Positions 13,213 to 35,800 of a stretch of 64,000 nucleotides of DNA are shown here, one piece after another. How positions within the stretch are numbered: the first letter of the stretch is position 1; each line of letters starts with the position of its first letter. The notes below the pieces were generated by a model. It searched no databases. It worked only from the letters and a program-made list of their open reading frames with translations, and had not been told where the DNA came from. Location of the stretch: assembly GCA_051294905.1 (NCBI GenBank), contig CM119371.1:24368001-24432000 (forward strand), written 5' to 3'. The position numbers and the translations under genes were made by a program. The DNA comes from Botryllus schlosseri (taxonomy: Eukaryota).

Positions 13213-14566
13213 CCAAAAGGGTGGTCGTAGGTCATCCAAGTTGCTACACCTGTTGCTAACAAGCCTGGTGCTTATACTGTTTTCGTGGGATTTGCCGAGT
13301 GTTACTAAATATCATATTTGACTACAACTATCTTGTATAGGCAATGATCTTGAAGTGGCCTCAAAATAATTACGTAAAGGTGGATAATACGTAACTGTTA
13401 GGTACACCTGTTATTCACGTAGAAATAAAACCATCCGTTTCCCATCACCTGGAATAGAGGCAGAAAATCAGTGCTATGAGAAGAAAGGTAGCGAAGAAAA
13501 GAGGTTAAAAGAAGTATTGCTGTGATCGGTAAATCGCACTCTATATGTGAAGAAACTTGAATAAGATTTGCAGGTGTGTAGATAGGCAGCCGTCAATATG
13601 GCCTATTGATGTATATCTAATTTATGGATAGAACTATAGTCGTTTACAATCAGTTTACTATAGTAATCTGGGGAGTCAACTATAGCTGATGGTAACGCAC
13701 GATATGGCGTACACGCAGTTGAGTTGAGAATTGGTAATGATAGTAAGCTACATCACTTTCATAGCTCACAGTAACTTTGCGTTCATCATTTGAGAATAGG
13801 AAATCGGAACTGCAGCCCGTATAATCACGTCACTTCGAATTGGTCGATTTTCACGGTTGTCTCACAGTTTTCGAATGTTTTATTTTCATTTTGTTGGTGG
13901 TGAAAGTTAGCGAACCAAGGGAGGATAAATGACCTAAGTATGGAGTTTTTTTTGTCCTATCAATTTGACGCAATATGTGTTATGTAATAAAGGAGCCGGG
14001 ATCGGTACAACAACTCAAGTCATTCTGAAGACTGACCTGTATAGTCCGACTTGTAGGCGGCTGCGGAATATCATATTTTGCGAGGGAATGTTTCACACCG
14101 CTTGCGAAGCATGTTGATGCAATCAATATGAATATCCATGTAAATGTACGACGTCAATATTTTCGAGAAATATACGGACAGTTTTTATCCAGAAGCTAGA
14201 ATCAGCATGAACTTATAATCCGGCGCAGTTTGTTTGTTTTGTGGCATTGATGGTGTTTGTCGACTACTATGGTAATTTACAACAGGCCAATGTGCGTCAT
14301 TTTAATTCCGTAGCTGCCGACTCGTAGCACGGCCCAGGTCGGCCCACTTCTAAGCTTTTATAAGACACCGCTTACGCGGATGAGATGGCAAGTAGGACCT
14401 AGATACCCGGCTCAGCTACTCAAAAGACGATAATATCTGATATGTGTTCCACAGCTGAGAACAATGTATGATGTTACATTGGCCTCTCAGCAGATGTAAA
14501 GCTAAATATTTTGGTTAGTTTTAGCTTTATCACGAGACCTTTGGAGAAAAGAGATATTGCACTGCA

Positions 14567-14852
14567 ATGTCATCGGGAGGGAGCGCCGATAATTTTGCCG
14601 ATGTGTGCTACGAGGAAATAGCGAAAATCAAGAATGCAGATTGGCTTGAGTTTGCACGCCGGAAATTGGATGTCCCGAACATTGAAATCGACGATATAAC
14701 GACTAACTATAGGCATGACGTACGAGAACAAAAGTTTCAGATGCTGCAATTTTGGAAGTCGCATCTGAAGAATAAAGATTGCAAACCATCTGGTGCGCTT
14801 CGCAAGCTGGTATCGGATTTTCAAGTGTCAACATCCCAATTTGAATGTGCAG
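14567..14852 (+). CDS. NLR exon 1: N-terminal Death domain
   Basis: DWLEFARRKLDVPNIEIDDI...VREQKFQMLQFWK fits the Death-domain pattern W..LAR.L.....ID.I.....EQ..QML..W; donor GCAG|GTTTGT at 14853, phase 1. Confidence 0.85.
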
Positions 14853-17800
14853 GTTTGTTCGTTTATTTGGTTGGTGTATTCAAGATAGCGTAATGGTTAA
14901 GCGTCCGCCATCTTGATCGGTAGGTCGTGGGTTCGATTCCCGGCCGGGTCAGACCAAAGACCTGATTAGTAACACTAGCATCCATGGCTTCCCTGCTTGG
15001 CGCTCATGCATTACTGGGATAGCATGGATGGGTGGTGCATGACTTAGAAAGTCGTAAAGGCTATATATGCACTTCCTTGTCCAGCGGCATATGCACATCA
15101 CGCACTCATGGTATGGATATGCGCAGATCATGTGTATGTGTACCATGAGTCGGTGTATATGCCGCAAAAACATCAAGGACAAAAATAAACTACGTCCTTT
15201 CCTTTCCTATTCATGCGGATTGTCCGACTATTATGGACAATTACACGAAGTCGATTTTCTTCATTTTATTCCGTCGCTGCCGACTGATAGCACGACCCAC
15301 TTCTAGGCTATTTATAAGACACCGCTTTCGCGGCTGATATGACCAAGGCAAGCCTAGATAAACCGCTGACATTTCCGTTACAGTTTAGTTAAACTCAGTG
15401 ACACACGGTCAGACACTGGCGTGTGGTCGGGCACTGCCCCCTCTGACGTCAGGATGAGTAAAAGGAAATTGTTAAGACCTTTAATGAATGAAACACAAAC
15501 TATTATGTGCATTTCCTATCGATGTTCATCAATGACTAATTTTGAAGCATTTGTACAATCAAAGTCACGGAATTCACATATTTATAGTTCAATAACATAG
15601 CGCGAAAGAAGAAGTGAGGCGAAGACTGGTCAGGCCTCTCCTATGACAGCGCAACACCTCATAAACAGCTCAGAATTTGTAATACCTGATGATTTTAGAA
15701 TGCTATTGTCGCACTTATTCCGAAAATCTAAACAGTAATAACTTCAGAACACCAGAGCCCCCTGAAAATCACCAATGTATGTGAAATTAGGCATAGTTAC
15801 GATCCAATGCAGAGAAACAATGACCAAATGGCGCACATGTGGATTTGTCTCACTCACTGTTTTTTCTCGCGGCGTTGCTCGTCTTTGCACACGCGAAGGC
15901 TTAACGCAGAACTACTTAATATGCCCTAGTCCAGAGGTCTCAGACTCAAATGTCCTGGCGGGTCAATTCCCGAGTTTTTGATGACGTCATAGGCCGCAGC
16001 ATCAATATTAGGGATGTTTATTGTATAATTTCCAAGTAGGCCTTATTTGGCGGGTCTTTGCGGCCAGGCATTCCAGAAACATCGTGGAGATGTAACTTAC
16101 TATTTTATTATTCACGCTTGACACGGAAAAAATATTTGAATATTTAAATAAAACTGTTTTTGTGCCGGGCATGATTTTTTTAATTAATGAGTTATTGACA
16201 TCATACGTGAGGATGCATCATGACATCGTAAAACTGTTGGGTTATAATATTGCAGCCAGTGGAATTTTTAGGTGCCACAATTTTAAGCATATAATATTTT
16301 ATAATCTACTGAAGATTGATCTGATATCAGAGCAATTGAGCGGTACAGCCTAATCCTGGGTTTGATATATTCGTGATAAGTATAAGCTATGGTAACTGTC
16401 ATCGCCAAGAGATTGTTGTTTGTTGCGTCCGTTGGAGTACCAAGTCACCGTTCCGTGCTGCAAGTCCTCTGATTTTACCGTTTGGCCCGACTCAACTCGA
16501 CTCATTTTTATTTAATCACCCAGTCAATCCGAAATCGAGTATTTTTACGGGACGGTTGCATCAAACCAAAATCATAATTTTCAGTCACGAATCATCAACG
16601 GGTCATGTTTCGTCATCATGAACTAGAAATGTAACGTTATAGCTGATTTCTACCGCATGGTAGCTTTTGAAAGTGATGTGACAGTGCAGTTTTTTGAGAT
16701 TTCAGTGATGTTTATAGTAGTTTTATGGCGAAATGTAAGTTCCTATATCTAAAAAAGATATATGGCACTTGAAGTTATAGTTGAATACTTTAAATTCCAA
16801 AATGCTAAAATGCTCTCACGGGCGGCGGGTTTGATACCTCTGCCCTAGTCTCAACGAGGATATTGACTGCAAGAGAGCAGTGCGGCAGCGCAACTGATCA
16901 TGGAGACGCTAGTGTGAGTCCCTGTGAGTGAGAGTGTTATGTTCTTGGTAGGGGGCGGAAACCCTGCCGACTGGTATGAATGTCTAAGTGAAGAAATCCA
17001 ACTTTGCACGGATAAACGACTCAAGTAACTTGTAGCCGGTCGCATTATTCAGTTCACAAGAAGGAGCTCATGGTTTCGAAAAGGTTATTGCTGGGCCTGG
17101 TGTAGTATGAATCGTGGAGTCGGTGCGAATACATTTCCTTGCGGATATATCTGTTTTCCACTCTCCGTCTCGATTCATACCTATATCTTCAATTCTGGAT
17201 GGTATAGTACCTTCTTACGTAGCCTACGTGAGAAGAGTTCTGATGCGTTGAGAAAGAAGTCGATGATTAAATTACCCATAATCTTGGGTAGTATCTACTT
17301 TGGTAAATCCGACCGTAAAGGGACAGTGTCTTACCAACCATGAACCTCAGCGCACCTCAGTGGTTGTTGTTGTTGTTGTTTAATAAAATGAAAGATTTTA
17401 CGCTCATCACCTGTCGCACCAGAAATCAAATATGAAAAATATTATAGGAAGTATTTACCGTAGAAAAGTGGTTCTAGAACTTTTTAAGACATGCCCCTCC
17501 CCCCTTATGATGGTGAAAGATTTTGCGCCCCCTTATCGTCATATCACAAAACTTAACCAAACCTAACGAACAGTTTGGTGGCATGGGTGGTTACGACTAT
17601 TGATGAGAGGTTTTTAAATATGAAATTCATACAAAATATAGAGCAATAATTATGAACTGGAAGTAATTCGTGCGGAGCGCGAAAGATTTTTTCAGTTGAG
17701 CTCAGCTTCGCGATCCCCTTCAGATGCTTTCACGATCCCAAGGGGCACGCGTCCCCCAGATTGAGAACCAATGCCTTGGAATTATCATGGTGAAATATAC

Positions 17801-20800
17801 TAAAAAAAAGTTCAATCAGGTCCCTGCACTAAATCGATTTTTCGTACGCATTTTATCAATATTTTTAATAAGTTTCTTTAGACTTTCGCGGGCCGCACAG
17901 AACGTTGTTGCGGGCCACATGCGGCCCGGGGGCCATAGTTTGCCCACCCCTGCCCTATAGTGTGGGCTCAAAATCATTGTTTATTTGGGCGGGAGAGGGC
18001 TGAAATCATGTGCTTTCGGTCCCGGTTACACAACACAAAGTCACATGCTCCTGAACCGAATCGTGACCGTATCTGGTCTATGAGCAAAGCTTTGCTAGAG
18101 TGACGTCATGACTCACTTGGGAATCCACTACTGGGCGCTAATGAGTGTCCGGAATTTGGGTTGCTGAAATATGGTAACCCTGGCCTAGAACGTACATGCT
18201 TTGCGAGTATCGTACAAAAGCCAATATAGCTGAAACACGGTGATTACTGAAACAACCACGACACGTAAACACCAGATCATATAGAACAGAGATCCATATT
18301 GCAGCTGACGGTTCTGAAATCAAATCGGAACAAAAACAGCTGAGACTATAAGCACGTCAGTAACTCTAAAACATTTGAATGATTCACTTTATAATAGTTT
18401 ATTGTGAGTAAAATATATAATTCGTAGTAAACGATTCTGCATATGACTGTCTAAATTATTTGCTGAGTTTCTATGCTCTATAATTAAATTGAAGAAAACC
18501 GGGGAATATAAACGAGTCTGTCTTCCGCCATTAAACTATGTCAACAGGTCAATGCTCATACAGTACAGTCAATGTTATTTAATTGCACTATCACAGGCTA
18601 GGCTTGGCTTGTCTCCGACCTCTTTGTAAACGATTTTCAAAACAAGTCCTGCATTAAAGTCAAATGAGCCCTGACTATACAAATAATCGTGGAATGTGCT
18701 CATCATTATATTTTATTTCTCCGGAAACGGTCATGCACTGGATCCCTTACCTCGCTTGGCCCCACGTAGTTGCGTACTATAGTTCTTTCAAGCCGTTGAA
18801 TGATTGCTAGTAACTTTGTATGACATGTTACTCACACTCAGGACCGCGCAGAGTTACCTTGATAATAAACAGATATCACCCTCATTGCCCCTGTCATATC
18901 AATGAGTCGGTAAATTTTCTTGCCGCAATAGTTCCGAATTGAAGTCGACGTGCTGTGGGCCAACCCAAAATCCATTACACGAGCCATGATCAAATCAGTT
19001 AACTTCTTGATGTATTCTACTCACGACTGGCTTTGGAATCGAATCTATAATGTCGACCACTGAATCTAGCGATGTCAATATACGATCGACCTAATATAGG
19101 GTTATTATATTTTGTAAATCTGATTTTTCAGACTTAAATTACTGGAGTAAAATCCGGAACATAGTAATTTTATCCGACTACTCGGTTGGTTGACTAAAAA
19201 AGTCATCTCTCCGGCTCAGCTCCCAAAACAGCCGCAGGAGCGATACTTCCGCGCTAATTTACTGTATCTAAGTCGAATTTTACTCTGTATTCAAACAAAT
19301 TTCTCGAAAAAATAGGACATTCGGGCATATTCGGAGGACACTTTCAAAAAAGCCAAAAAATAGGACAAATCTATTTAAAAGCGGGACGTATTTTTCTTGT
19401 TTTAGTGCGATACCGAATTCATTACGTTGCATCGATGTTGATGCTGTTCCTGCACTGACCGATTACTTTAGTTTTTATTTTCGGGCAATGCCCATAGAAC
19501 GGTTTACGACTGTGTTTTTGTTTATATAGCATTCAAACAAAATGTGTCGATCCGACGCGATCATCTAATTTGTGAATATTTTCTTAGAAATGACATTTCT
19601 AGCAAAGACCAAACATCATCTTCGTAACGAAGTTGGAGAAATCAAAATGCCCGCTCGTCTCACAACAATGGTGATTGATATGCAGACTGCCAACGACGCC
19701 GATTTCAGAAATGCAGGTCATGGTGGTAGCCAAACTGTATTTGGTCGTGACGTTCAACCGATCTCTCATGTCCAATTTCATGATCCCATGAAAGGTAAAG
19801 CTCCCAGGCATGTTATGATACTCGGAGAAGCAGGGGCTGGAAAATCAACCATTTCAGGAATGTATTGCTTGGCAGTAGCTGATGGAAATGTTGAGACGCT
19901 TCGTAGTGTAGAACTTATTCATTACATCCAGGCAGCCCAACTTCATAACCATAGTGCTGCAAATGTCTTTGATCTCTTATTTACCGAACAAATGGCTTAT
20001 GATCCTATGACTGAATTGACTGTAAACGAGAGAAGTGCTGGAGCAAACTGGTTAAATGAGAATTCAGACAAGATATTACTGACAATTGACGGCCTTGATC
20101 AGTGCTTAGATAACATTGCTGTAAATACTCTCCAAAGTAACACCGAACAAACTAATTCGAGAGTCAGTAATATCATCGCTAGAATAATGGGCGGAAAAAT
20201 GTGGCATGGTGCACGCATATTGACCACGTCGCGGTGGAATATTTACTGGAACCTGACTGCCGAACAGAAACCAAACAAAGTAGTCGGCATGAGAGGATTT
20301 GACGACGAAAATCTTAGGTTGGCAGCACTTCGACACTCTGTTGACGGTGATATGATGATAGATCAACTCCTGAATACTTCACCTAAATTATTAAATTTAT
20401 GTAGAAATCCTATGTTTCTACAGTATACCACGAAAATATTCAAAACAAATTCCAAAAACTTGCCAGACTGCATTTCCGGCCTTATGTCAGCATTTTTTCG
20501 CAACCTGTTCCGTCTGTCCTCTGAAAAGTATGATGATATTACGAGACTCGCCTACCATGCAACATTGGACAATGTATTCGTGTTCTCGCGTCGTTACTTG
20601 GAAAACCTGGTAATCAACCCAAAAGATCTTACTGACTTCTTGTCTGCTGGAGCGAATCCGGAAAAAGATCAAGATATCGCCAACTCCTTTGACGATGTAT
20701 TTTCTTTCTCCCATCAAACGATGCAGGTTAGCGAAGTTGATTTATTTAGTTGTAACAAATCTAATTCATTAATCGTGCTTTTTAAGGTTAGCAACCAATA

Positions 20801-23800
20801 GACCTATTAGGGTAGGCATTTTCGAAAAAGAAGGACGGGTAGTTCCATTTCCAAATCATTTTGGGTGCATCAGGAAGAAGTTAGGCAGACGACTAACAAT
20901 TTTCCCATTAATATATGAAATAATAATACTCACTCTGATGTATACATATCGATGTCATAACTTTGTTTTGGGAAATTAGCGACAGCACTTATTATCAGCA
21001 ATCCCTCCAATGACCTAAGCCAAACAATCCTGTTCCAAAGCGTAAAAAACATGATTAGGCGTTATTCACTATCGGACAAAATGCACTCTCGAATTTCGAA
21101 AATAAAGCTTTACCAACTTGCATCCGATCAGCAATGAATTGGTCATCAATGTATATATACAGTATTCGCTATGCGTATTTTGACGACATGTGTTCAGGAA
21201 TTTTGCTGCGCGCTACATGTCCCGAATCTTGATCGAACGGACATGAAGAGATTTATTTCGAATCATTTGAACGAGAATGGAATGGAGTTAATGAGACAAC
21301 TTTTGTACGGATTGATTCTCAATGAGAAAGTCATGGAGTCAATGAAGAAATACCTGACGGGTAAGTTGATATATTCAATGCATCATAATAGGCATGTAGG
21401 CTACTGTTACCCATACTTTGTCTTATTTTTGTCCTGATAGCAGTGATGATGAAATGCACCACTCATATTCCAATATTTCTTGTGATGGGCATTAGCGGAT
21501 TGGTAGGATTCAATGATGTATCCTTATGATGATAAGACTTCCTGCAGCTTCCTAAATACTTGGAAATTATGTAGAATGCTGTTTTCAGCTGGTTAAAGGA
21601 AATTTATACTGCTACATTTGCAACTTTTGTCAATTGTTTCATGCAACGTTTTGCAACTTCTTCGATTTTTCATGAATTTTTTTTCGATTTTTCATGCAAC
21701 CAACTCTTTAATGGAAATATTTGGAAGTATATGTAAATAGATCACTTGATTCTGTCACTGTTTTTTGAGAATTTTGGTGAAATACACGACCAAATTCGAC
21801 TGAAATATCGTGAATCAGTAAATCAGCACTGAACTAACGCTCTAACGGGTATTTCGGGAGCTGAACCGGAAAGTTGACCTTATGGACAATGTGGATGGAA
21901 AACTGTATTTCGGAAGTGGAACTGGAAAGTTGACCATTTTTTTAGTCAAGCGACCAAAATGTGGTCGTCTAGTGCAACTTTTGTGATAAATTAAATGCAA
22001 CTTTTGTGAAAAACAAACGCAACTTTCCACGGATTTAACTGCAACAAAAACTTGCACTAGTAATGACTATTCAGTTCATTTCACATTATATGCGAATATA
22101 AATAATAAATGCCTAAATATTGTACGGCATCAGCAACCCTATCATAGGGACGAATTAAGTAAACTATGTTTTCGTTTTGAATTCGAACTGCGCTGCATTG
22201 TCGAGCGTTACTTTCATCAAAGAAGTATTAATAGTTTCCTGGCGTTGTATCGATCACAGGTCGCAGTACACCAATCGAGGAATGTCGTGAGATGATGTTC
22301 GAACAATTTCTTGACCTGGTAAAAGATGGCGCTATACTCGACATATCGACTGTACGTCTCCTGAGCGAGTGCGGAGACAATACTATTCAGAAAATGAAGG
22401 AACACGTTCAACGAATCAGAATCAATGCGGAAGACCTGTTGCACAGTGATCAACTCTTACTGACAATATTGATAAAACGGTTGTCACCCCTTGAAACAAC
22501 GTCCGTTCGGCAAATAACTCTTGATCCATCGATGATAACGTGCGTGAAAGATTGTCTCGGGTCTGTTGAAATATTCGAGGTAGCTCAAATATTAACGAAC
22601 TCACTTGTAGGCGTCGTAATTACTCAATGCCATCTGTTGCAAGGCTGGCTACGAGATCATGGATTCCGTGAAGGAAATTCATTTCGCTGATGTAATGACA
22701 ATCCTCAACCAATCGAAATTATTCTTCGTCCGCCTTCGGTGTAATGATGATGTGAAACTATTATTTCTCTCCAATTGGATACAAAGATCGGAGGTATCAC
22801 ATTTACATTTTTCGAAGTCAGCTACTTAATGGATCTTCGCCCCGATTCTATACTGGATATGCTTACATGATTTTCTAAATTTTAAGGGCGGAGATAATAA
22901 AGTTCGATAAGCAATAAAGTCGATTATCGCGTTCCCCGGGATTTAACAACCCAGGATTACCAAAAGCGCAGCGCATAAACTTAAAAATTGTTCTCGTGAT
23001 TTAGTAATCGGAACAAATTGCAGATAACTGCTTATCTATAAACAAACTGTACATTACTCGCAAATATTTCCGATAATGACCGTGACGATTGTCGCCTAGA
23101 GGTAATATGGCTTCACCCAACAATCAACCAATTATGCACGAACAGTTGTAGAACGATGTATCTATCATCTGTAATCCATTTCGTCGCTTTATACCGTATT
23201 GGTGCAAAAGATGTCATCGCATGCATCACTTGATTGTAACATCGGGATTCTCCTCACGCTTAACATTAAGAAACTTTATGCTTGCGGACCCTTTTAAAAT
23301 CGGATTCCGTATACGGATTCGGTCAATCGGTCAAGCGGTCACCTGGCTATATCTTTATTCGTGTACACGTCCTAGCGGCTTCATTTTGGTTTGTAGCGAA
23401 AGCTAGCAATATTCTCATTCATATGATACCAGGTTTATATGTATAAGTCGAATATTTATTCTAATACCAACGATTTTACACGAGACGGTCGGCCGAAAAT
23501 AGTTGAAATTATGACGCTACAGAATTCGTCTGCCAGCTTTATGTGTTAATTTCTTCATCGACATACGGCTATGTCCCAATCTGTGTATGTAGAGCACATG
23601 TCCCATGCAGAGATGCCACTGGGATATTTCGGAAAAACCCAGATGTGGACGCTAAATGAACCCAGAAAAACCCAGATCTTATATTTCACTCAAATTCCTA
23701 TGCGGAGGATGTGAAAATGGAAACTGACAGTCATATTGACATAGAACCAAGTTTTAGTCCTTGATATTGAGACTATAATAGTTCATACTATACGTTTTGC

Positions 23801-26800
23801 TCGGTTAACAATGCAAATATACAATATATATATTAGGGTTGTCCATAATTTGGAAAATCTCAAAAAATATGCGTATCCATTAGGGTTGTCCATAATTTGG
23901 AAAATCTCACAAATGCTGCGTATCCATTTCTCATTCTATAGATTATTGATAAAAAACGTCAATGAGCCTGCAATAAGGTCCCAGGAAAGTCGTTAAGGGG
24001 GTAAGGTACTGCTAGACTCACAAAATTTTCAAATTGCGATATTTCATGAACAGCTAATCCTGGATTCTCAAAAATTGGCATGTATACTATTTATACTCAA
24101 CTTCATACACTGTAAAAATTTTATCATTTTACAATAATTCCTTGGGCCCGAATTGGGGGGGAGATTGGCGAAGCGGACGGTTAGCACGGGGAAACGCCTG
24201 TCTCTTCGATGGTTGCCGCGAGATCCTTAACAATGCTTCATAAAGTGTCCTGAGGCCTCTAAGCACCTGCTGAAACGCTTGAAACTTCCGATTTTTCGGA
24301 AAATTTTACGAAATATGTGTTTGGTACTGGTACGGTGCCGAATTTTCGATTTTTTTTCTTCATAAAATTCAGATCATAAGTAGCAAAGTAAGTACACTAA
24401 AACTTTTATAGAAGAAACAATAGTTTCAGCAGGTAGAACAGTACTACTGCTTGTACTGAGCCAAGTTTGATCAGGATCGAAGGACTTCTGATATCAAAAT
24501 TCCCTGTCCCCGTGACACAATATTAACAAAAACTAGAAATAGGAGAAAATCAACTTTGAAAATTGAAAAATATTTTATTGAAAAAGTAGAGCAGTTATTT
24601 GAAATCTGTTGCTTTTAAATGGTACAGGCATGCTTTAATCAGTACATAACCAAATTTGAAGACAATTGAATGTGCCTAAATGCAAAATCAGTCATAAAAA
24701 GTATGAATGATTTGATGAGTTTTTACTCAAAACTACTATACCAGATTCGAAAAATTTACAAACCTTGAATTGGACATCAGTTAGATGTTGTAAAGATGAA
24801 ACAACATATCAAGAATACTGCGACATTGTCAAAATACCGATTTCAGGTGGTGTGAGGTGAGTGAAGAAACTACACCCATATTTCCCCCGTGATCTTTCAA
24901 ACATAGAGTTTTTAGCATCAATTTCATCATGACACTCCAATACTAATTAGAGTTGCATAACCCTTAGCATTCTGCATTTGCAAAGTCATGCACTTTACTC
25001 AATACTTGCAAGGTCCTTGAAGTCGGGTTTGACCGTTTGATACATTTTGGATGTCAGCGGATACTTGCGGATTGGATCGTAGCATCTTCAAGTTTTGCCT
25101 TCAAATAAAAGCACATCTTTTCATCAGAATTGCCGTGCATCGGTTCTTCTGGAGTTGAACTGTTTGGCATCAGTATTGCCCACACTTCCTCGAGGCTTCC
25201 TGTGCATCTGGTGCGCCATTTACGATGGGATTATGATAATATTGGCTACACTTTGGTGTTGATCTGGTGATGACAATGCTTTTTGCCTTCCTGTTCAACA
25301 TCTCTTTTGATGAGGTGAACCGACGAAAAGTTTCTTTCTTGCAGCACGACACTCCGATGCTAATCTCTGTGGCAAAGCCTTGCTGGATATTTTGCCAATA
25401 GCCCATGCCTGTTGAACCACAGTCAGGGCAAGTCACAATACACTGAATAACTGCATCATGCATGAATTGCTAGGATAAAGGTTTCCTCTGAATTCCATCC
25501 ACCACCATCAGACTTCAAAGCAGATAAAAGTTCCAAACTTTTCTCGAATGACTTTATCATAATATTTTCTCCTTCTCTGGTCAAATGCCTGTTTTGTTGT
25601 TATCTTTGTCCCACCCATTGTAAAATCACAACTAACTATCAGTTTTCTCACAATATTATCTTGATAAGTAAAATAATTCAAAAATCAGCCACTGACAACA
25701 GGATAGCTAATAACAGTGTCTTGTGAGTGCTTTACAGCTGCTTTGGCTGCCAGAGAATGTTATGATATTCATGCTTGAGTGATTACAGCTATGGCTCTTT
25801 ACAATAACTGTTTAAATTATAAGGATATGGTCTTTAGTGACAATTTTGAGCTGGTTAAAAATATGGGGGGGGGGTGTGGGTCTGGAATCTTTACGAAAAT
25901 GAGAGATTTTAAATGGACTTTTAATCTACTTATAGATTGAAATCATGCAAGATGATTACATTTTTGGAAAGAGCTAGTCTCATACTTTGTAATTCTGCAA
26001 TAAAAAAAAATTATGAAAAATTTTGATGATCTGGGAGTACCTTACCCCCTTAAGATTTGTCTAAATGCGTTTGAAAGTAGCTGCTGTAGAGTGGGCGTGC
26101 CAGCGACCATAGAACGGAGAGAAGACTAGAGTAGTATAGTAGATCTGTCGCATGTGGCTATTCGTTCTTATGGGCCCGCTGGTGACCTGCCGCGAAACTC
26201 GTGTTGGTGACCCCACCCTTTTGACCCCCCCTTCCGCTGGTGACCTGCCATGGGATCTCTGGTGACCCCACCCTTTCAGGTATAGGGTTCGCTCATGACC
26301 TGCCGTGAAAACTCGTATTGGTGACTCCACCCTTTTCGAGTCCCTATCGCTGATGACCTGCCGTATCGTCGGTGATACCACCCTATCAGTTATACGCTGT
26401 ATCGATGACCTGCCTGATAACGTTACGGGTATACAGATCTCTGGTGAAGTGGTGTTGAATATCAAGTATAGTAAACAGTGACGCCGTTACTTAGTATGTA
26501 TATTCAAAAATATTATATATGACCGATTCGAGTTATTCACAACGTTTTTCGGTGAGTGCAACAATGATATATCGTTATTCTTATGGGTGCGGCGATGATT
26601 CGTACTTTCGGGCATAGACCGCGGTGGCATGTTAACGTAGTTGATATAGACGCGACATGATAACGTTACAGGTATAGGGATCGCTCACACGAAGACACCG
26701 TAGTTCAGGCATGACAAATGACCGATCGTGTTCTAAGTCTTTTCTCGCTATTGATTCCTACGTAACCTGAATAATACTTTCAGATCGGATTATTCGCACC

Positions 26801-29800
26801 TTCCGCTGTTTCGCACCTACAGAATAGTCTGCTGTTCACAGTCGCAACTTCATCGCGATAGCACAATTTTCGCACCTCGAACAGTAGAACAACATCGCGC
26901 TAACTCAGTTGTCGAATCACATAGGCCAAGCATTTTACGCGAAATGAAATATTGTATTGTGGTATACAAATAAGCAAACTATTCTTTCAATTCGACAAGT
27001 CTAGTTAACTGATCGATTTTCAATCTTCCGACACAGTTTTTAACACGCGTGAGTTGATATTTCTTCCCAGATACGAGCGAGGCTTTGGTCCATTGATCCA
27101 GCACCACCTCTCCGGTATCGTCTTTTAATGCAAAACTGTATAATTTCAACTCCTTTCCGGTGCCAGAATTGACCATCTTCTCCTCTCGAGAAACACAAGT
27201 AGCGGCGATGGATACTTATTCATCTTTATTCCCGTATACCGATTCACAGGTCAATAATGGATACTCTTCAGTCGTATGTCTCGTTTTCCATGCGGGGTTA
27301 CTGACGAAGCTCGACACAGTAATACAGTAGGTTTTCCAGTGAATTTATCAATTTGGACCCAACCGGATTTGACCATGAGTTTTTTTCGTTTGGAGAATGC
27401 TTTCTCAATGTTCCCGAACAATTCACGATTGAAACACGTGAAAGATATCTCTTCGTTATTACCGTCGATGAATATACCTTTGAGATATTGACTAACACGA
27501 CCTCTTTTGGGCGATGAAACGAATTTGACGCCGACGTGAAAATTTGAAGTTGCTCCGACTTGCATACTGCTGACACTGTTCGATGCCATATCGGTCGGTA
27601 ATATGAAATTCATCAACAAATTCATCGACATTTATAGAATTAGGTGCGTGGTATTGAGCGAATTAACAGTCTTTGTATAACACTGATGATCCTTGTGAAT
27701 AGACTTGGTTTGAAATAAACTTTACAGGGATTCTGTAAGAAAGTATACCGTTCACAAGTGACAAATAATACGAATGAATTTTCTTCTTACCCAATCGCTA
27801 GTCAATGTACTGTAGTGAGTATTCAAGATGTCTGTTGTTAAATCTCTATACACTGCGACGGAATGAATGTCACTTTTCATCGCCGCAATGCTTATGAGAC
27901 TCAAAACGCCATTCCAATCGACGCCGTATGATCGAATCGTGTTAACCAACGCGGTAAAATCGCACTTTCGAACACGGTTCACGATTTCTCCATGTACATA
28001 GAAATCTAGTACTCCGTGGATGAATTTTTCCGTTTCGCTCAAGGTGGGAGTTGTTAAGTTATGATAGTACAGAAGGTAATTCTCAATAATCGCGCTAGTT
28101 GCCATAACAGATGTCTGTAACAATAACTGCGAAGAGAACCTCGATAAGGTGTGAAACCCCGCGCGGTATCGAGAGGGAAAGGGTTGTTACACAATAGCAA
28201 TAAAAAGCGAATCGCCTAAGCGCGTGAAAATGAACCCTATAAATAGATCTCGGCGAGTGCCGTACTTTATTGATTCAGACATAATCCACGGGTTGGAACA
28301 GCTGTATTGAGGTATAGTAACGACGTATTTGGTGAGCTGAGCGTATTCCAGAGCAAGTCTACGGTTAACTATTTAATAGGTAAGTTATTTGGTATGCCTA
28401 CTTTGATTTATGAATATGATTTGTTGTTCGTTTATCCACCAGACAAAACAAGCGCAGAATTAAAGAATTGTATCGGTTAGTTATTACTGTTCAGAACGAT
28501 AGGAGCACGATGTAACGATTTTTGTTGTTGAACAGACAAAGCAAACTCAAGGATTATTAACAACACGCAAACCTACTGGTGAGTTATCTGGTATAACACT
28601 ATGTTAGCGAACGTAGTTTGATGTGTAATTTGTTTTATTAAGCATAAAGTGGCGAAGACACCAGCGAATAAACTAGATTGTAAGTAAGACTAGTTTAATG
28701 TTTCGAAAAGTGCTGAATTTGACTGCGTGGTATCGCTTTTACAGATGAGTCGACGACGGAGAAATCGTGTTCGCGAAGAAGAGAATGCACCGCCAGAGAT
28801 CGGCGAACAATATCAAGAAGTTGTATCGCAGAACTGGCAAGCGATAAAATCGTATGTAGTGAATGAGAGTCGACGCGTGTATAATATTCGGGTCATCGAT
28901 CGTGAGATATCGGATGTTTTCCGCGATATCCAAGCTATATTTTCCTCAGAGTCGACCCGTTTAAAAGTGAATTTCGCGTATGCATTTATTTTACACCACA
29001 TCGAAACTATGAGATTTCGTTATTTCCACGCATCCCCAAACATCGATAGTGTATTAGAAACCCCTGCGGCGATTTCGTCACTAGCTAAATTCGATGAATT
29101 TGTGGGGTCTATACACTTGGAAACCGCGCTAGATTTCCTACAAGACTCTCGACCTGATACAAAATATCGGGCGATCTGTCTGACTAATGTACAGTTTTAT
29201 GTATATCCTACCGATGGCATGTTGATTGGCTGTGTTGGTATTAAACTACCGACATGGCTTGCAAAATCGAAATGTATCTTGACGATGTTACGTCGAAAAA
29301 ATTGGAAACTGTACAATGACAATCTTTGCGCTTTTCGTTGCATCGCCCACTCACTAGGAAAAGATACAACGGAAATTGCTCAACAATTCACTTCGGTATA
29401 TGGTACCAGTGTTGAAGCTGGCGTAACTCTTGACATGCTGGACGATATCGAGACCTTGTTTAATATCGCAATATTTGTATACACCAAGACCGAGGGCAAA
29501 GCTGTCACACTCCGGCGCAGTACGTTTGAGGCGAAACCTGTTTACCTACATTTAGAGGATCGCCATTTTTGCTTAATTACAAACGTGAACCGTTATGCGA
29601 AGAGATATCATTGTGATACTTGTGAAAAATTCTTTGATTTACAACATGAATTGGCCAGACACAAATGTGTAACGGGTTCTGTTGAAGTGTTCCCTGGCGG
29701 TGTGTATACACCTCCTCTGAACTTATTTGAAAAGCTCGATCTCGAAGGGGTATTCGTTCCCCTCCAACTTCGTTATTTTAAATACCGTATCGCGTTCAGT

Positions 29801-32800
29801 ATAGAGAGCTTGTATGATACCTACGATACCTCAAAAACTTTGCGAGAGCGCCAGAACATTCCCATCTCTGTTAGCATCTCGTCTAATTTGGAAGGTTACT
29901 TGGAGTCGCATGTAATTGTCTCGAGTGGTGATACAAACGATTTGTGCGCACAAATGGTTGACCATTTTCACGATATTCAAAGTGAATCATTCAGACTTTC
30001 ACTCACGGAATATCGACCCTATCTGGACATGCTCAAATCGGAAATTACCGAGATGAAAGCGCTCGATGCTTCAAAACACCCAATACCCCTTGAACGTTTA
30101 CAAGTGGAGTTTATGCGTTATTTACGTCAAATTCCTGTGTTATCAAAGCGTACTTGTTTGGTTTTCTCGTTGACGACAATCTTAGTGTACTGAAACGCGG
30201 TAACAAATTTCTCTCAATGACGACCAACAGACTTCAATTCTTGGATATTGTGAATTACTTGACACCTGATTTCTCGTATGATTTATATTTGGAAGCCTTC
30301 AAATGTAGCTCCGCTAAAGCTCACTTCCCGTACCAGTTTCTGACTAGTTTGGAAAAGTTGGGTAACTCGAGTCTTCCTAACCACGATGAGTTTTACAACC
30401 CGCTAAAAGGTCGCAATATATCAACATCAGAATATGAAAACTGTTTGAAGGTTTGGAATGACAACAAAATGACCTCTCTTCGTGATTATCTCAAATGGTG
30501 CAACGCGAACGATACTCACTACCTCATAGAAGTTTTAGAAAAACAATTCCAATCTTTCAAAAGTCAATTCAATGTTGATATATTCAAGGAAGCGGTCTGT
30601 CTGATCGGGGTTGTATCGAGACATCTTTTTAATAGCATCCCGCGTGATTTCACAATGTTGAACGACAAACATAAAGATCTGTTTTCGCTATTCAGAGACA
30701 ATTTAGGGGGTGGACCATCGATCATTTTCCATCGACACCCAAAACCAGGTGTAACTCGAATCAAAGAACATGTCTATAAGGAAAATGCACAGATTGCGCA
30801 ACATATAACAAGTTTGACTAGCGACTCACTCTATCTGTATGCATTAAGTCGACCAAGTCCAACCGGATTTGCGGTACGTTGGCAGCCAATTGGCGTCGAG
30901 TGTACTAAATTCAAACCTGTCAAGACCGCACCGAAATGCTCAGAGACTGTCACTCAGTGGATGAATTGGTATTCGATACGACTGATACCCCCGCGGCTTT
31001 TTCAGATCACAATATGAAAGATATTTACATCGCACAAAATACTCCACTTGATATTCACATACTATACTAAACTACGGAATGGTTGATCAGACTCTACAAA
31101 ATGTTTTGATATCGTTTTTTACACGAATGGCCACGTATCTAAATATTCAAATAATCCAACACACAACTATAGTACTTACAGAAATATCATAAAGCTGTTG
31201 TAACAAAGTTGTCTGAATATACTATTTAATTGAATATTGAAGTTTTGTATCTCGAAGAAGCTCTTCAAAGTTGTATGTGTACAATGTTTATCGTGAGTCC
31301 TACTACACATTCATGATATCCATCCGAGTGTGACTTTGAGAAAACATTATACCGACATCGCGACATCTTTCAAGATTAAAACCACGGTGACTGCTTGAGA
31401 GACCTACCAATGATATCACAGTAATACAGTTATTTCCACAAAAGAGTATGTATTCGACTTACTTTCCACAAATCTAACGCACAAAACAATTTACTTTGCC
31501 AACGAAAAGTGCTGAGTCATCATATGATTGACCTCATAACAATACAACTAAAACATACTGTCATACAAAATGTCCGCTATAGCCACCGACTGTAAATCAC
31601 ACAAGCAGTAAGTTTCAAGAATCCGGTTATTGAAAAAACGTTAAGGTGTTTCTCCTGCGTCAAGTCGTTATGTTGACGAAAGCGTATATTGTAATATCAT
31701 GATCGATTTGTATTCGTTGGTCACAAACTGTCACTACTCTAAATAATTATTTTTCACTCAAACACAAAAGCATACTTGTGACCATTCGTTTTCATCAAGT
31801 ACGAGTTCAAGAAACTTACTTACTACGACATGAATTATTATTTTTATGTTGTGTAAATAGGTAATAATTAATTTTAGTAACACTATATCAACGTCATCGA
31901 GTTGTGCGAATAGATTTACATGTGGTCTTGTGGTTGCATACAGCATGTTCTAATGTAGAGTCATCTCTATTGTACAGCTACTCGGTAATCGAAATGTATG
32001 CATTCGCATTTGAACAACGATCTTGTTTTGTCTTACCAAAAATATGTTCACTGTCGCGATACTCTACACAAGATGTGTAAATCCACACTCATAATAGTAT
32101 ACCGACGTCAAGCGATAACGTTTAACAACATCACTGACACTGAACATACGACAGTTACCAGAGTAAAAATACATTGTCCTTCGGATACATGACGTTTACC
32201 TGTGTAAAATTACCATTTTTTCACTTGGAGGTCTGCCGTAAAAATACCATTGTCCTTTGGAGATCTATCGTTTCCTAGAGTAACAAAACCATTTTCGTTT
32301 GGAAATATATTTTTTCCCTGAGTAACAACCCCTTTTCGTTTGGAAATATATTTTTCCCTGTATAACAAACCATGTTCACTTGGAAATATATTTTTTTTGC
32401 TGAGTAACAATACCGTTTGCCTTTGGAGATCTAGCGTTTACCCAGAGTATTAATACATTTTCACTTGGAAATCTGACATTTACCTGAGTAACAATACCGT
32501 TTTCACTTGGAAATATATTTTTTCCCTGAGTAACAAACCATTTTCACTAGGAAATATATTTTTTCCCTCAGCGACAAACCATTTTCACTTAGAGATGTGA
32601 TGTTTACCTGAGTAATAACACCATTTTCGTTTTGAAATCTGACAACTACACGCATCAATTTGGTGTTTGTTTTATTGGTGACAGTTTGAAATTGATTACA
32701 AGGAACAGTGATGAAAATATAAACGGACAACCGGTTTCAGAGTATACCCACGTCTGTCGTATCACATCAATATCATCGGTTAACCACATGAAATAACAAT

Positions 32801-35800
32801 ATGCTCTTGTATATCGAAATGTATGCTTTGGAAATCGACGAATATTATGTGTCCTGGTGTGTGTCTGTGGGTGTCCCGGTTCGTGCTTTAGCCTCCCACA
32901 GAGTCAATATGTTGAAATGAGCAACCTCCGACTTTGGTAACTGCTTGGTACATGGATAATGATTGAATTTATGTCCCCGTCGCGCTAACAAAGCCGGGTT
33001 ACTTGTGAGTTTTCTCACACATGTTTACTACATTGTGTCTTTATTGGTCGATACATGTCGCTCCAGTCAACTGAAACCGGATCACTAATATGAGAAAGTG
33101 TGTGGGCCGGATCCGGATATTCACTCATGAGCCAACGACCAATATTCAAGTAAACATGTTACAGACCGTGTTCTGGCTCCATGAAAAATACCAATGCATA
33201 CACCATCACACACATCAAGTACGTCACGATTGTTCACAAGTATTCGCTAACGAGGTGTACAAAAATGGGTCGGTGTGCAAACATCATGGGACACAAATTC
33301 ATGTTCTCAAGTCTCATCACGCGACGACTCTGTACATTCAATGTGGATATACATTGTTCTTGCTATGATGCATATTTTGCTGTGCACACTGTGTACACTG
33401 TGTATTGTATACCAGTACTATGCTTGGATGTTTACTGCTGATTTCCCATGATTTTTATCTTTTGTTATTTTTTATGACCACTGGTTAGTGGTTAACCGCC
33501 ATAATTGTTAGTTTTGATAGACTTACATCTTGCCATATTTACTCATTTGTAACTCCGCTGGGTGGCGACTGAATCTACGACCTTCCGGTCCCCCGTCGTC
33601 TCCCAATCCATACCAATTTACATGTTGTGTTTGTTGGTGAGATGAATAAAAGCATACTGACTGACTGACTGACTGACTGACTGACTGTCTACAAGCGAAC
33701 TGTAGTTTTGCTGACCCTACCAGTCTGTGCATACCTTTAGATCTCTTTCTTTGGTATGATTGAGGACTTTGACAGCACTTACGGGTAGATTCATTATGCT
33801 GTAAGAATCGCCGACAGGTGTCACGCATAAACGGACGATTCAGTCCATCCTTAGAGCATTCAAAACTTAAATTATATACCACGACCAGAGCCTAATGAGA
33901 TCAGACAAAGTATTATCACTGTCAAGATTTCTATTTGTAATAAATGATGGTACATCCCTTCTGAAACTAGAAATTCGTACGCTACTTGCATAAGTGCCAT
34001 TGCAATGTTTCTTTGTGTGTTTTCCCTCGATTAAAGCAAGGTACACAGATTGCAACGGTTACCTTCAAAATAAGCCAGTCGTGTTTCAAACGTTTTTGTG
34101 AAACAGCTGTCTTTTGTTCGTTATGTAATATGTTAAACATATCCCGAATCAATCTCAAATCATCATATGCGGACCAACCTACAATGCGCTTACAGATTCA
34201 CCGCCGTTAGCAAACTCCTCGAACATCTGATCAGCAAGCCGCCACTGTCGTAGTTATTCAGGCATAGCCGCTTACCCAATCAAGCGCCGTGATTTCATGA
34301 TTAGGGGAGATGTGGTACCGATGGATCACTGGGACCGAAAATACTTTGAAAATTCTCCATGATAATTCCATGATCACACTCCGTGAACTTGTCTACAATT
34401 GCATGCTGGCAAAATCTTTCCTCACATACAAAAAAATTCGACGTGCACGAGCTACGGGGTCTCTCACAGATGATTTTTGTTTTGGGGGTGTAAACTAAAT
34501 TTAGATCGACATATACATTTTTCTTTAAAACCTTCAACACGAACAAGCCAGCGATCATTTTTATTGTGAAGTATAGGGCTTGTATCAGGCTATATAATGG
34601 CACCTATTATTTTTTTCAGTACTTTCCTTGAGTGGACTTTTTTTCGATTCATGTATAAAATTCGTAGGGTGGGGACCGATGATACAATAGCCAAATCAAG
34701 CAAAATAATCAAGCATACTAATCATGAAAGAAATGAAACATGCCTACGTGCAGAAAATCTTTATGTAATAATTGCATATGATGTTTTATCGCTATAACGA
34801 GGTATTGGGAAGTCACACTGTCGATTTTCGGGCAATATGTATGTACCCACAAATTTATAAATCCGAGCCTAAATCGAAACGTGATTTTATGACAACATTT
34901 GAGTTAATATTTATTTTATTTTTTGACAGTTGCGACCAAACATTCTTCTTTGGCTTGCTGCAGCTTAGATTATAATACTGAACAAGAAAAGTAGGCACAT
35001 TTGAGTTTTTAGGGTATATGTGTGATAGATCTCCGGGTCGTGTGTCATTGGACCCACCGGGTGGGGACCTATGCCACGTTCGAGCAACAAATTTTAAACG
35101 TCCATAAATATTTTTTGAAAAGAAGGATATTCATGTATATGTGCGCGATACGTAGAGCTTGTATCAAAGTGCTGAGCCAGCAAAAGATCTGCTGTTTTCG
35201 GCTGAACATTTCGGGGCCAGCAATCATTTTCCAGTTTTTGATCCATCGGTACCACATCTCCCCTACTAGTCTTCTCGCCGTTCTATGGTCGCTGGTACGC
35301 CCACTCTGTAGCAGCCACTTTCAAACGCATTTAGACACATCTTAACGACTTTCCTGTGAACTTATTGCAGGGTCATCGACGTTTTTTTATCAATAATCTG
35401 TACAATGAGACATGGATACGCAGGATTTGTGAGATTTTCCAAATTATGGACAACCCTAGTATCCATGTCTCATTCTGTAGATTATTGATAAAAAACGTCA
35501 ATGAACCTGCAATAAGCTCATATTAAAGTCGGTAACAGTTGTCTAAATGCGTTTGAAAGTAGCTGCCGTAGTGGGCGTGTTAGCAACCATAGAACGGCGA
35601 GAAGACCAGTAATCACGAAATCACGTCTCTTGATTGGTTATTCAGCTATGCTTGAACGATCACGACCACAGCGGCTTGGTGATTATGTGCTTCTATTAGT
35701 CCAAGGAGATCGCTAACGGCAATAATTATGTAAGCGCATTGTACATTGGTGATTTAATAATAAAATGAGACATCTGGTCATTGAATGTTTTAGTGTTAAA

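Follow-up and report, generated by a model that had tools for sequence, protein, structure and literature searches.

A conserved block of short introns before the polymerase gene of a Maverick/Polinton family in Botryllus schlosseri: a probable spliced non-coding leader

The Maverick copy in the window

The window is the whole 64,000-nucleotide stretch of Botryllus schlosseri DNA analysed here (GCA_051294905.1, contig CM119371.1, positions 24,368,001 to 24,432,000, forward strand), and all positions below count from its first letter. From 26130 to ~30980 it holds the left part of a Maverick/Polinton copy (Table 1). Sister copies, ~16 kb long, carry genes for a polymerase of 1280 aa, for an ATPase and for a chromodomain-containing rve integrase, and terminal inverted repeats of 614–782 bp that are 95–99% identical were found in five of the six sister regions fetched. 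Its polymerase, integrase and termini identify the element as a Maverick. Window positions 26423–26848 match both ends of another copy (C15). The polymerase profile PF03175 matches the window fragment under the cut-off (E 3.8e-4) and sister copy L048 over it (E 1.1e-7), and the ATPase of sister copies matches Pox_A32 weakly (E 0.008). No match was found for a 423-aa element ORF in Pfam and PDB sequence searches, for a 114-aa ORF at the element end in Pfam, or for window positions 26000–32000 in Rfam.

The polymerase gene in the window has a frameshift near 30094–30145 and stops at about residue 758 of 1280 (tblastn), so this copy is dead and unable to make polymerase. Its right end is missing, and the truncated copy has no rve integrase. 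In this genome the polymerases lack N-terminal C2H2 zinc fingers and begin with a basic M-S/A-R-R-R motif; most of the closest database polymerases carry such fingers at the N-terminus. Around the element, an 80-nt inverted repeat (93%) pairs 26050–26129 with 35266–35345, its left arm running precisely up to the Maverick terminus; an array of 42-nt tandem repeats occupies 32246–32638, and a host NLR-like gene with Death-domain and NACHT exons lies upstream of the element at 14525–22690.

Table 1. Features of the Maverick copy and of the predicted polymerase leader, in window coordinates
Feature	Position	Strand	Remarks
Left terminus (AGTAGT) and left terminal inverted repeat	26130..26850	+	Inner limit approximate; three other copies have an identical terminal motif
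Divergently transcribed element ORF, shortened to 126 aa	27251..27631	-	207–215 aa in other copies; without Pfam match
Divergent element ORF, 117 aa	27752..28105	-	Without Pfam match
TATA box, TATAAATA at 28238	28238..28245	+	Promoter of a 292-aa ORF in most sister copies; ORF absent here
Leader exon 1 (predicted)	28266..28379	+	Start inferred from TATA box
Intron 1, 63 nt, GTAAGT..CAG	28380..28442	+	GT 44/44, AG 43/44 by column; 63 nt in all 44
Exon 2, non-coding, 33 nt	28443..28475	+	33, 34 or 39 nt in sister copies
Intron 2, 60 nt, GTTAGT..CAG	28476..28535	+	GT 43/44, AG 44/44
Exon 3, non-coding, 43 nt	28536..28578	+	35, 36, 41, 42 or 43 nt in sister copies
Intron 3, 64 nt, GTGAGT..AAG	28579..28642	+	GT 44/44, AG 44/44
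Exon 4, non-coding, 37 nt	28643..28679	+	33–41 nt in sister copies; polymerase ATG preceded by a stop at codon −2
Intron 4, 65 nt, GTAAGT..CAG	28680..28744	+	Acceptor adjoins the polymerase ATG at 28745
Protein-primed family B DNA polymerase gene (pPolB)	28745..30975	+	PF03175, tblastn

A first-pass annotation of this DNA had proposed a leader of four 60–65-nt introns before the viral polymerase, ending in an AG that abuts the ATG, and both features are present in the sequence. It had also called the donors consensus, which holds for introns 1, 3 and 4; donor 2 deviates in the window at +3 and reads GTGAGT in most sister copies. Exon 1 is composite in the window, its 5′ part matching the 5′ UTR of the 292-aa ORF (ORF292) of sister copies and its 3′ part matching the end of an exon, exon A, that is found in those copies. 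From the TATA box to 28745 there are seven ATGs, every one of them intronic. The view that such regularity exceeds chance is borne out by a search of both strands of the window, in which the leader is the sole chain of at least three such introns, and by order-3 Markov simulations of 64 kb, none of which (0/60) exceeded a chain of two under criteria chosen after the feature had been seen.

Conservation of the splice sites

A DNA search gave 149 candidate loci, of which 40 were scored. Four of these (L005, L007, L008 and L010) carry a second, tandem four-intron block and polymerase start ~1.2 kb downstream, with splice sites intact, which brings the number of leader blocks to 44. Intron lengths across these copies are 57–67 nt. 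Counted by alignment column, the splice dinucleotides are canonical at 349 of 352 positions; two of the three exceptions are alignment shifts, the AG of intron 1 having moved by one base in the exception at that site, and one is a genuine GT-to-TT change. The check that the first-pass annotation had named, conservation of GT and AG in relatives, thus comes out in its favour: none of the 16 GT/AG columns is polymorphic, compared with 176 of 329 background columns from intron interiors and exons (53%). Variation is seen in 3 of the 24 donor columns and in a single one of the 12 acceptor columns. Fisher tests against the background give p = 7.5e-6 for GT/AG, 6.5e-5 for donor and 0.002 for acceptor columns, values to be read with the relatedness of the copies in mind. 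The same pattern is seen within each subfamily, where 1 of 36 splice columns is polymorphic against 109 of 329 background columns in one and 104 of 329 in the other. Splice columns that stay frozen among variable neighbours suggest that the splice signals have been maintained by selection.

The leader introns are not detectably members of one repeat family. An origin by tandem duplication was considered and finds little support: comparisons of introns 1 and 3 and of introns 2 and 3 give z values of 0.8–3.2 only, inflated by the mononucleotide shuffles used. Across families, introns 1 and 3 of family 1 against intron 2 of family 2 reach z 2.5–4.0 with the same shuffle inflation, and blastn between the intron blocks of families 1 and 2 found no significant match.

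Two layouts and related families

The 40 matches fall into two layouts, with 15 in group A (the window copy included), 24 in group B and one with foreign sequence before donor 1. Group A has a short first segment, with the motif TATAAA 139–143 nt before donor 1 in 14 of 15 copies, and the composite make-up of exon 1 described for the window copy is that of the group A first exon. In group B ~1.2 kb separates the TATA box from donor 1 and holds an ORF of 292–298 aa, ORF292, which is full length in 22 of the 24 copies and begins ~90 nt after the TATA box in all of them. ORF292 is followed by an acceptor that is invariant in 24/24 group B copies and lies ~61 nt past the ORF292 stop in L061; exon A (~175–181 nt) extends from this extra acceptor. 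The first-pass picture of a TATA box leading straight into the leader consequently does not generalize: the box promotes the 292-aa gene in 24 of 40 copies, and the subfamily with the deletion (15/40) is the only one in which it directly drives the leader.

No homologue of ORF292 was found outside this genome, nor any Pfam or usable Atlas match. Its product (L024:392–1270) has an acidic N-terminus, a basic middle and a helical-looking C-terminus. A metagenome search matched one distant contig, which starts inside the ORF. Group A elements have spread without ORF292.

An outgroup, family 2, is ~62% identical at the amino acid level in the polymerase N-terminus, and all six of its copies combine three introns of 69–75 nt with an ORF296, the extra acceptor and an exon homologous to exon A. 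Since family 2 shares the group B layout, we infer that group B is ancestral and that group A, an older subfamily, arose by deletion of ORF292 and the extra acceptor. In three more distant families (30–40%) the polymerase ATG is preceded by an ORF, by T-rich sequence and, close by, by an acceptor, without the intron block. Twenty of 169 such matches were examined, and the acceptor lies 0–17 nt before the polymerase ATG in 19 of them (L113 is not assessable).

Acceptors also precede other genes in some of these elements. Family 5 (L111 and L112) has an ORF of 430 or 414 aa, a small ORF and the polymerase, with an acceptor before each downstream gene. From L048:4348 onward, and likewise in L045, the polymerase is followed by a pair of small ORFs that look like paralogues, both of which have an acceptor at the start codon. 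A coding intron of 96–97 nt in phase 1, with 60 open codons beyond it, interrupts the second ORF in two of five loci; one of the others was cut by the locus end and two gave no find. The 110 nt upstream of the ATPase, of the integrase and of the putative virion genes were also inspected, and no acceptor adjoins the start codon there. In aligned copies of family 3 (L101–L108 and L114), the promoter region between divergent genes is tandemly duplicated (~180 nt).

Coding potential of the leader exons and upstream ATGs

The short exons could encode an N-terminal extension of the polymerase or be the recent relic of one, as might be thought from the zinc fingers that database homologues have at their N-termini and these polymerases lack, and from copy L004, in which an upstream ATG is open in frame into the polymerase. 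L004 is the one block in 44 with such a reading frame. Elsewhere the exons contain frame-breaking indels, with the summed length of exons 2–4 spread over all three frame classes (21, 16 and 7 of 44), and 35 of the 44 blocks have a stop at codon −2 relative to the polymerase ATG. There is no consistent third-position excess in exons 2–4, and the polymerases of all five families share the M-S/A-R-R-R start. We therefore regard an N-terminal extension or its relic as very improbable; a current coding role is largely refuted, and exons 2–4 are, judged from their sequence, non-coding. Exon A of families 1 and 2 also shows a conserved-looking peptide, which was tried as a current ORF and rejected, as it has no ATG and contains stops and indels within family 1.

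A makes up 45% of exons 2–4, which contain no ATG in 41 of 44 blocks; T makes up 39% of the introns, where ATGs occur at 26 distinct sites. Composition alone would give ATG-free exons 2–4 with a probability of ~0.18, so this property is weak evidence when taken by itself. The spliced leader of group B is free of ATGs in 23 of 24 copies, and the unspliced form has a mean of 7.9. In group A, the spliced leader is ATG-free in only 3 of 15 copies (the exon 1 start of L008 being mis-set). The first-pass description of the exons as ATG-free is thus accurate for the window copy and does not extend to most of its subfamily, and the ATGs in 12 of 15 group A leaders weaken ATG removal as the purpose of splicing there.

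RNA reads

RNA reads were mapped on the group B copy L061, from three raw runs with 6–13% of each sampled. Read depth over the leader is ~0–2 and the element is nearly silent. At that depth no junction reads spanning introns 1–4 were listed in the three runs, and there are no spliced-leader reads among the loose ends listed. A further run, X1, consists of contigs that are possibly DNA; all 30 bins are covered, and the run is uninformative because neither of its two joints is GT-AG.

Run X7 contains six reads with a loose 5′ part that stops exactly at the polymerase ATG, and the last nine letters of the loose parts equal the exon 4 tail of 21 of 44 blocks (chance ~9e-6). Another six-read loose end, 35 nt further on, matches polymerase starts of group A, with 0 mismatches to L004; we assume that both loose ends come from one set of reads. 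The remaining 21 loose letters are absent from the assembly, which leaves the source copy unplaced and makes a DNA rearrangement in another individual possible. A search of the assembly with exact degenerate patterns found no intron-less DNA copy of the exon 4/ATG or exon 2/3 junction. On the simplest interpretation, the X7 reads come from a rearranged copy in another individual and record the loss of intron 4 by splicing. The RNA check suggested by the first-pass annotation therefore yields six fitting reads for intron 4 and no read support for introns 1–3.

The missing joints at introns 1–3 would be expected if the block resembled splice sites by chance and were never spliced. We find that scarcely credible in view of the column conservation, the independent three-intron block of the sister family and the chain test. 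The same six reads bear on another reading, in which the micro-exons belong to a spliced 3′ tail of ORF292 transcripts or to some non-coding RNA, and separate trans-splicing at the ATG acceptor yields the polymerase mRNA. An acceptor can suffice for the polymerase, as families 3 and 4 have only that acceptor at the ATG and no introns. The reads link the exon 4 tail to the ATG, however, donor 4 is invariant and can pair only with the ATG acceptor, and the block is still conserved in the subfamily without ORF292, all of which makes a separate tail or RNA quite improbable.

A proposed route of polymerase expression

Taken together, the comparative evidence makes it likely that the four introns and three micro-exons are the parts of a non-coding leader, spliced in cis, at the 5′ end of the polymerase mRNA, the layout with ORF292 being ancestral. 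In that layout a single TATA promoter would drive ORF292, and transcription would continue into the polymerase gene. The acceptor past the ORF292 stop, which lacks a strong donor, would start the polymerase message, and host spliced-leader (SL) trans-splicing could act at that acceptor as it does in ascidian operons. Exon A and exons 2–4 would then be joined through removal of the four minimal introns. Splicing would strip 6–12 upstream ATGs and leave the polymerase ATG first, with a presumed effect on translation. In group A, loss of ORF292 and of the acceptor would have put the leader directly under the TATA box.

Use of the extra acceptor by host SL trans-splicing is, given the rest of the proposal, a somewhat better than even prospect that draws on analogy with Ciona. 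There, unpaired acceptors are trans-splicing targets (PMC1488885, in the text available), and operons consist of abutting genes with single-exon first genes (PMC1488885 and PMC2760879, likewise), which favours an SL route over one in cis. The host genome carries a cellulose synthase exon of animal type, and among animals cellulose synthase is a mark of tunicates. A genome search with the Ciona SL followed by GT gave a single match with one mismatch, which is not recognisable as an SL RNA gene.

In the cis route, a short 5′ exon from the TATA promoter would be spliced from a weak donor ahead of ORF292 to the acceptor that follows this ORF, placing ORF292 in a facultative intron and giving the leader five cis introns and no trans-splicing. 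A candidate donor, GTTAGA, does occur 69 nt after the TATA box in 24/24 group B copies, and family 3 has a GTAAGT ~35 nt before its upstream ORF. Adenovirus offers a precedent, pTP and AdPol being reached through alternative splicing of E2 transcripts according to the accessible part of PMC9499273. The donor at +69 is nevertheless far weaker than the element's other donors, nearly all of which are GTAAGT or GTGAGT; the 5′ UTR around it is conserved throughout, and the GTAAGT of family 3 overlaps a TATA-like sequence. We consider this route unlikely, with an appreciable chance of being right.

A broader view would combine the SL-resolved, cis-spliced leader with control of expression. These Mavericks might organise their replication genes into an operon of the host type, ATG-rich retained introns might switch the polymerase off outside permissive cells, and the number of leader introns (4, 3 or 0) might be tuned by lineage. 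This combination is decidedly speculative and we hold it to be improbable as a whole. Splicing of the P element is restricted to the germline, which provides a model for such a splicing gate.

Comparison with known systems

The family appears to depend on the host splicing machinery for its polymerase. A conserved spliced leader implies nuclear transcription, with processing by the host spliceosome under selection. Annotation from ORFs alone misses this gene structure of Mavericks, and exact junctions are now available to assay. In the literature available to us, animal Mavericks are described as intronless and their transcription is hardly covered. Among the papers that a literature search reached, no account of Polinton leader introns was found, and the accessible portions of 10.1101/2024.03.25.586562, PMC3691228 and PMC8363768 contain nothing on them.

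With other animal Maverick/Polinton elements (adintoviruses and eupolintoviruses; Barreat and Katzourakis 2021, PMC8097293, and Starrett et al. 2021, PMC8502044, as far as their available text goes) the family shares pPolB, an rve integrase with chromodomain, a P-loop ATPase, inverted repeats and a length of ~16 kb. It differs from what is described there by its four leader introns, by acceptors at several ATGs and by one coding intron. Spliceosomal introns are also known within polinton-like elements of dinoflagellates, where introners have inserted into proviruses (PMC12166617, in its accessible part). Introners are described there as parasitic transposon insertions, whereas the Maverick introns are fixed, conserved and placed in an untranslated leader.

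Operons of Ciona resolved through SL trans-splicing resemble group B in having a single-exon upstream gene and less than 100 nt to the unpaired acceptor of the next gene (24/24 group B copies), to judge from the portions of the Ciona sources at hand. The present case differs in that the element is viral and trans-splicing is a prediction, and the window's own subfamily has lost the unpaired acceptor.

Adenoviruses, to which the first-pass annotation compared the leader, likewise splice several short exons before a viral coding region, and AdPol is also reached via splicing. Their tripartite leader originates at the major late promoter and is used by many structural genes (both points from the available text of PMC9499273), whereas the Maverick leader precedes the polymerase only and has introns of 57–67 nt. 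Nothing shows that this leader is common to several downstream genes, so an adenovirus-like tripartite leader in the strict sense is not supported, and the likeness is probably one of function only. What stands of the multipartite leader first proposed for a Polinton-like element is a multi-exon, non-coding leader, predicted to be cis-spliced, 5′ of pPolB, identified by comparison and with reads at one junction. It bears on whether the spliced gene expression of adenoviruses has a counterpart among their Polinton relatives.
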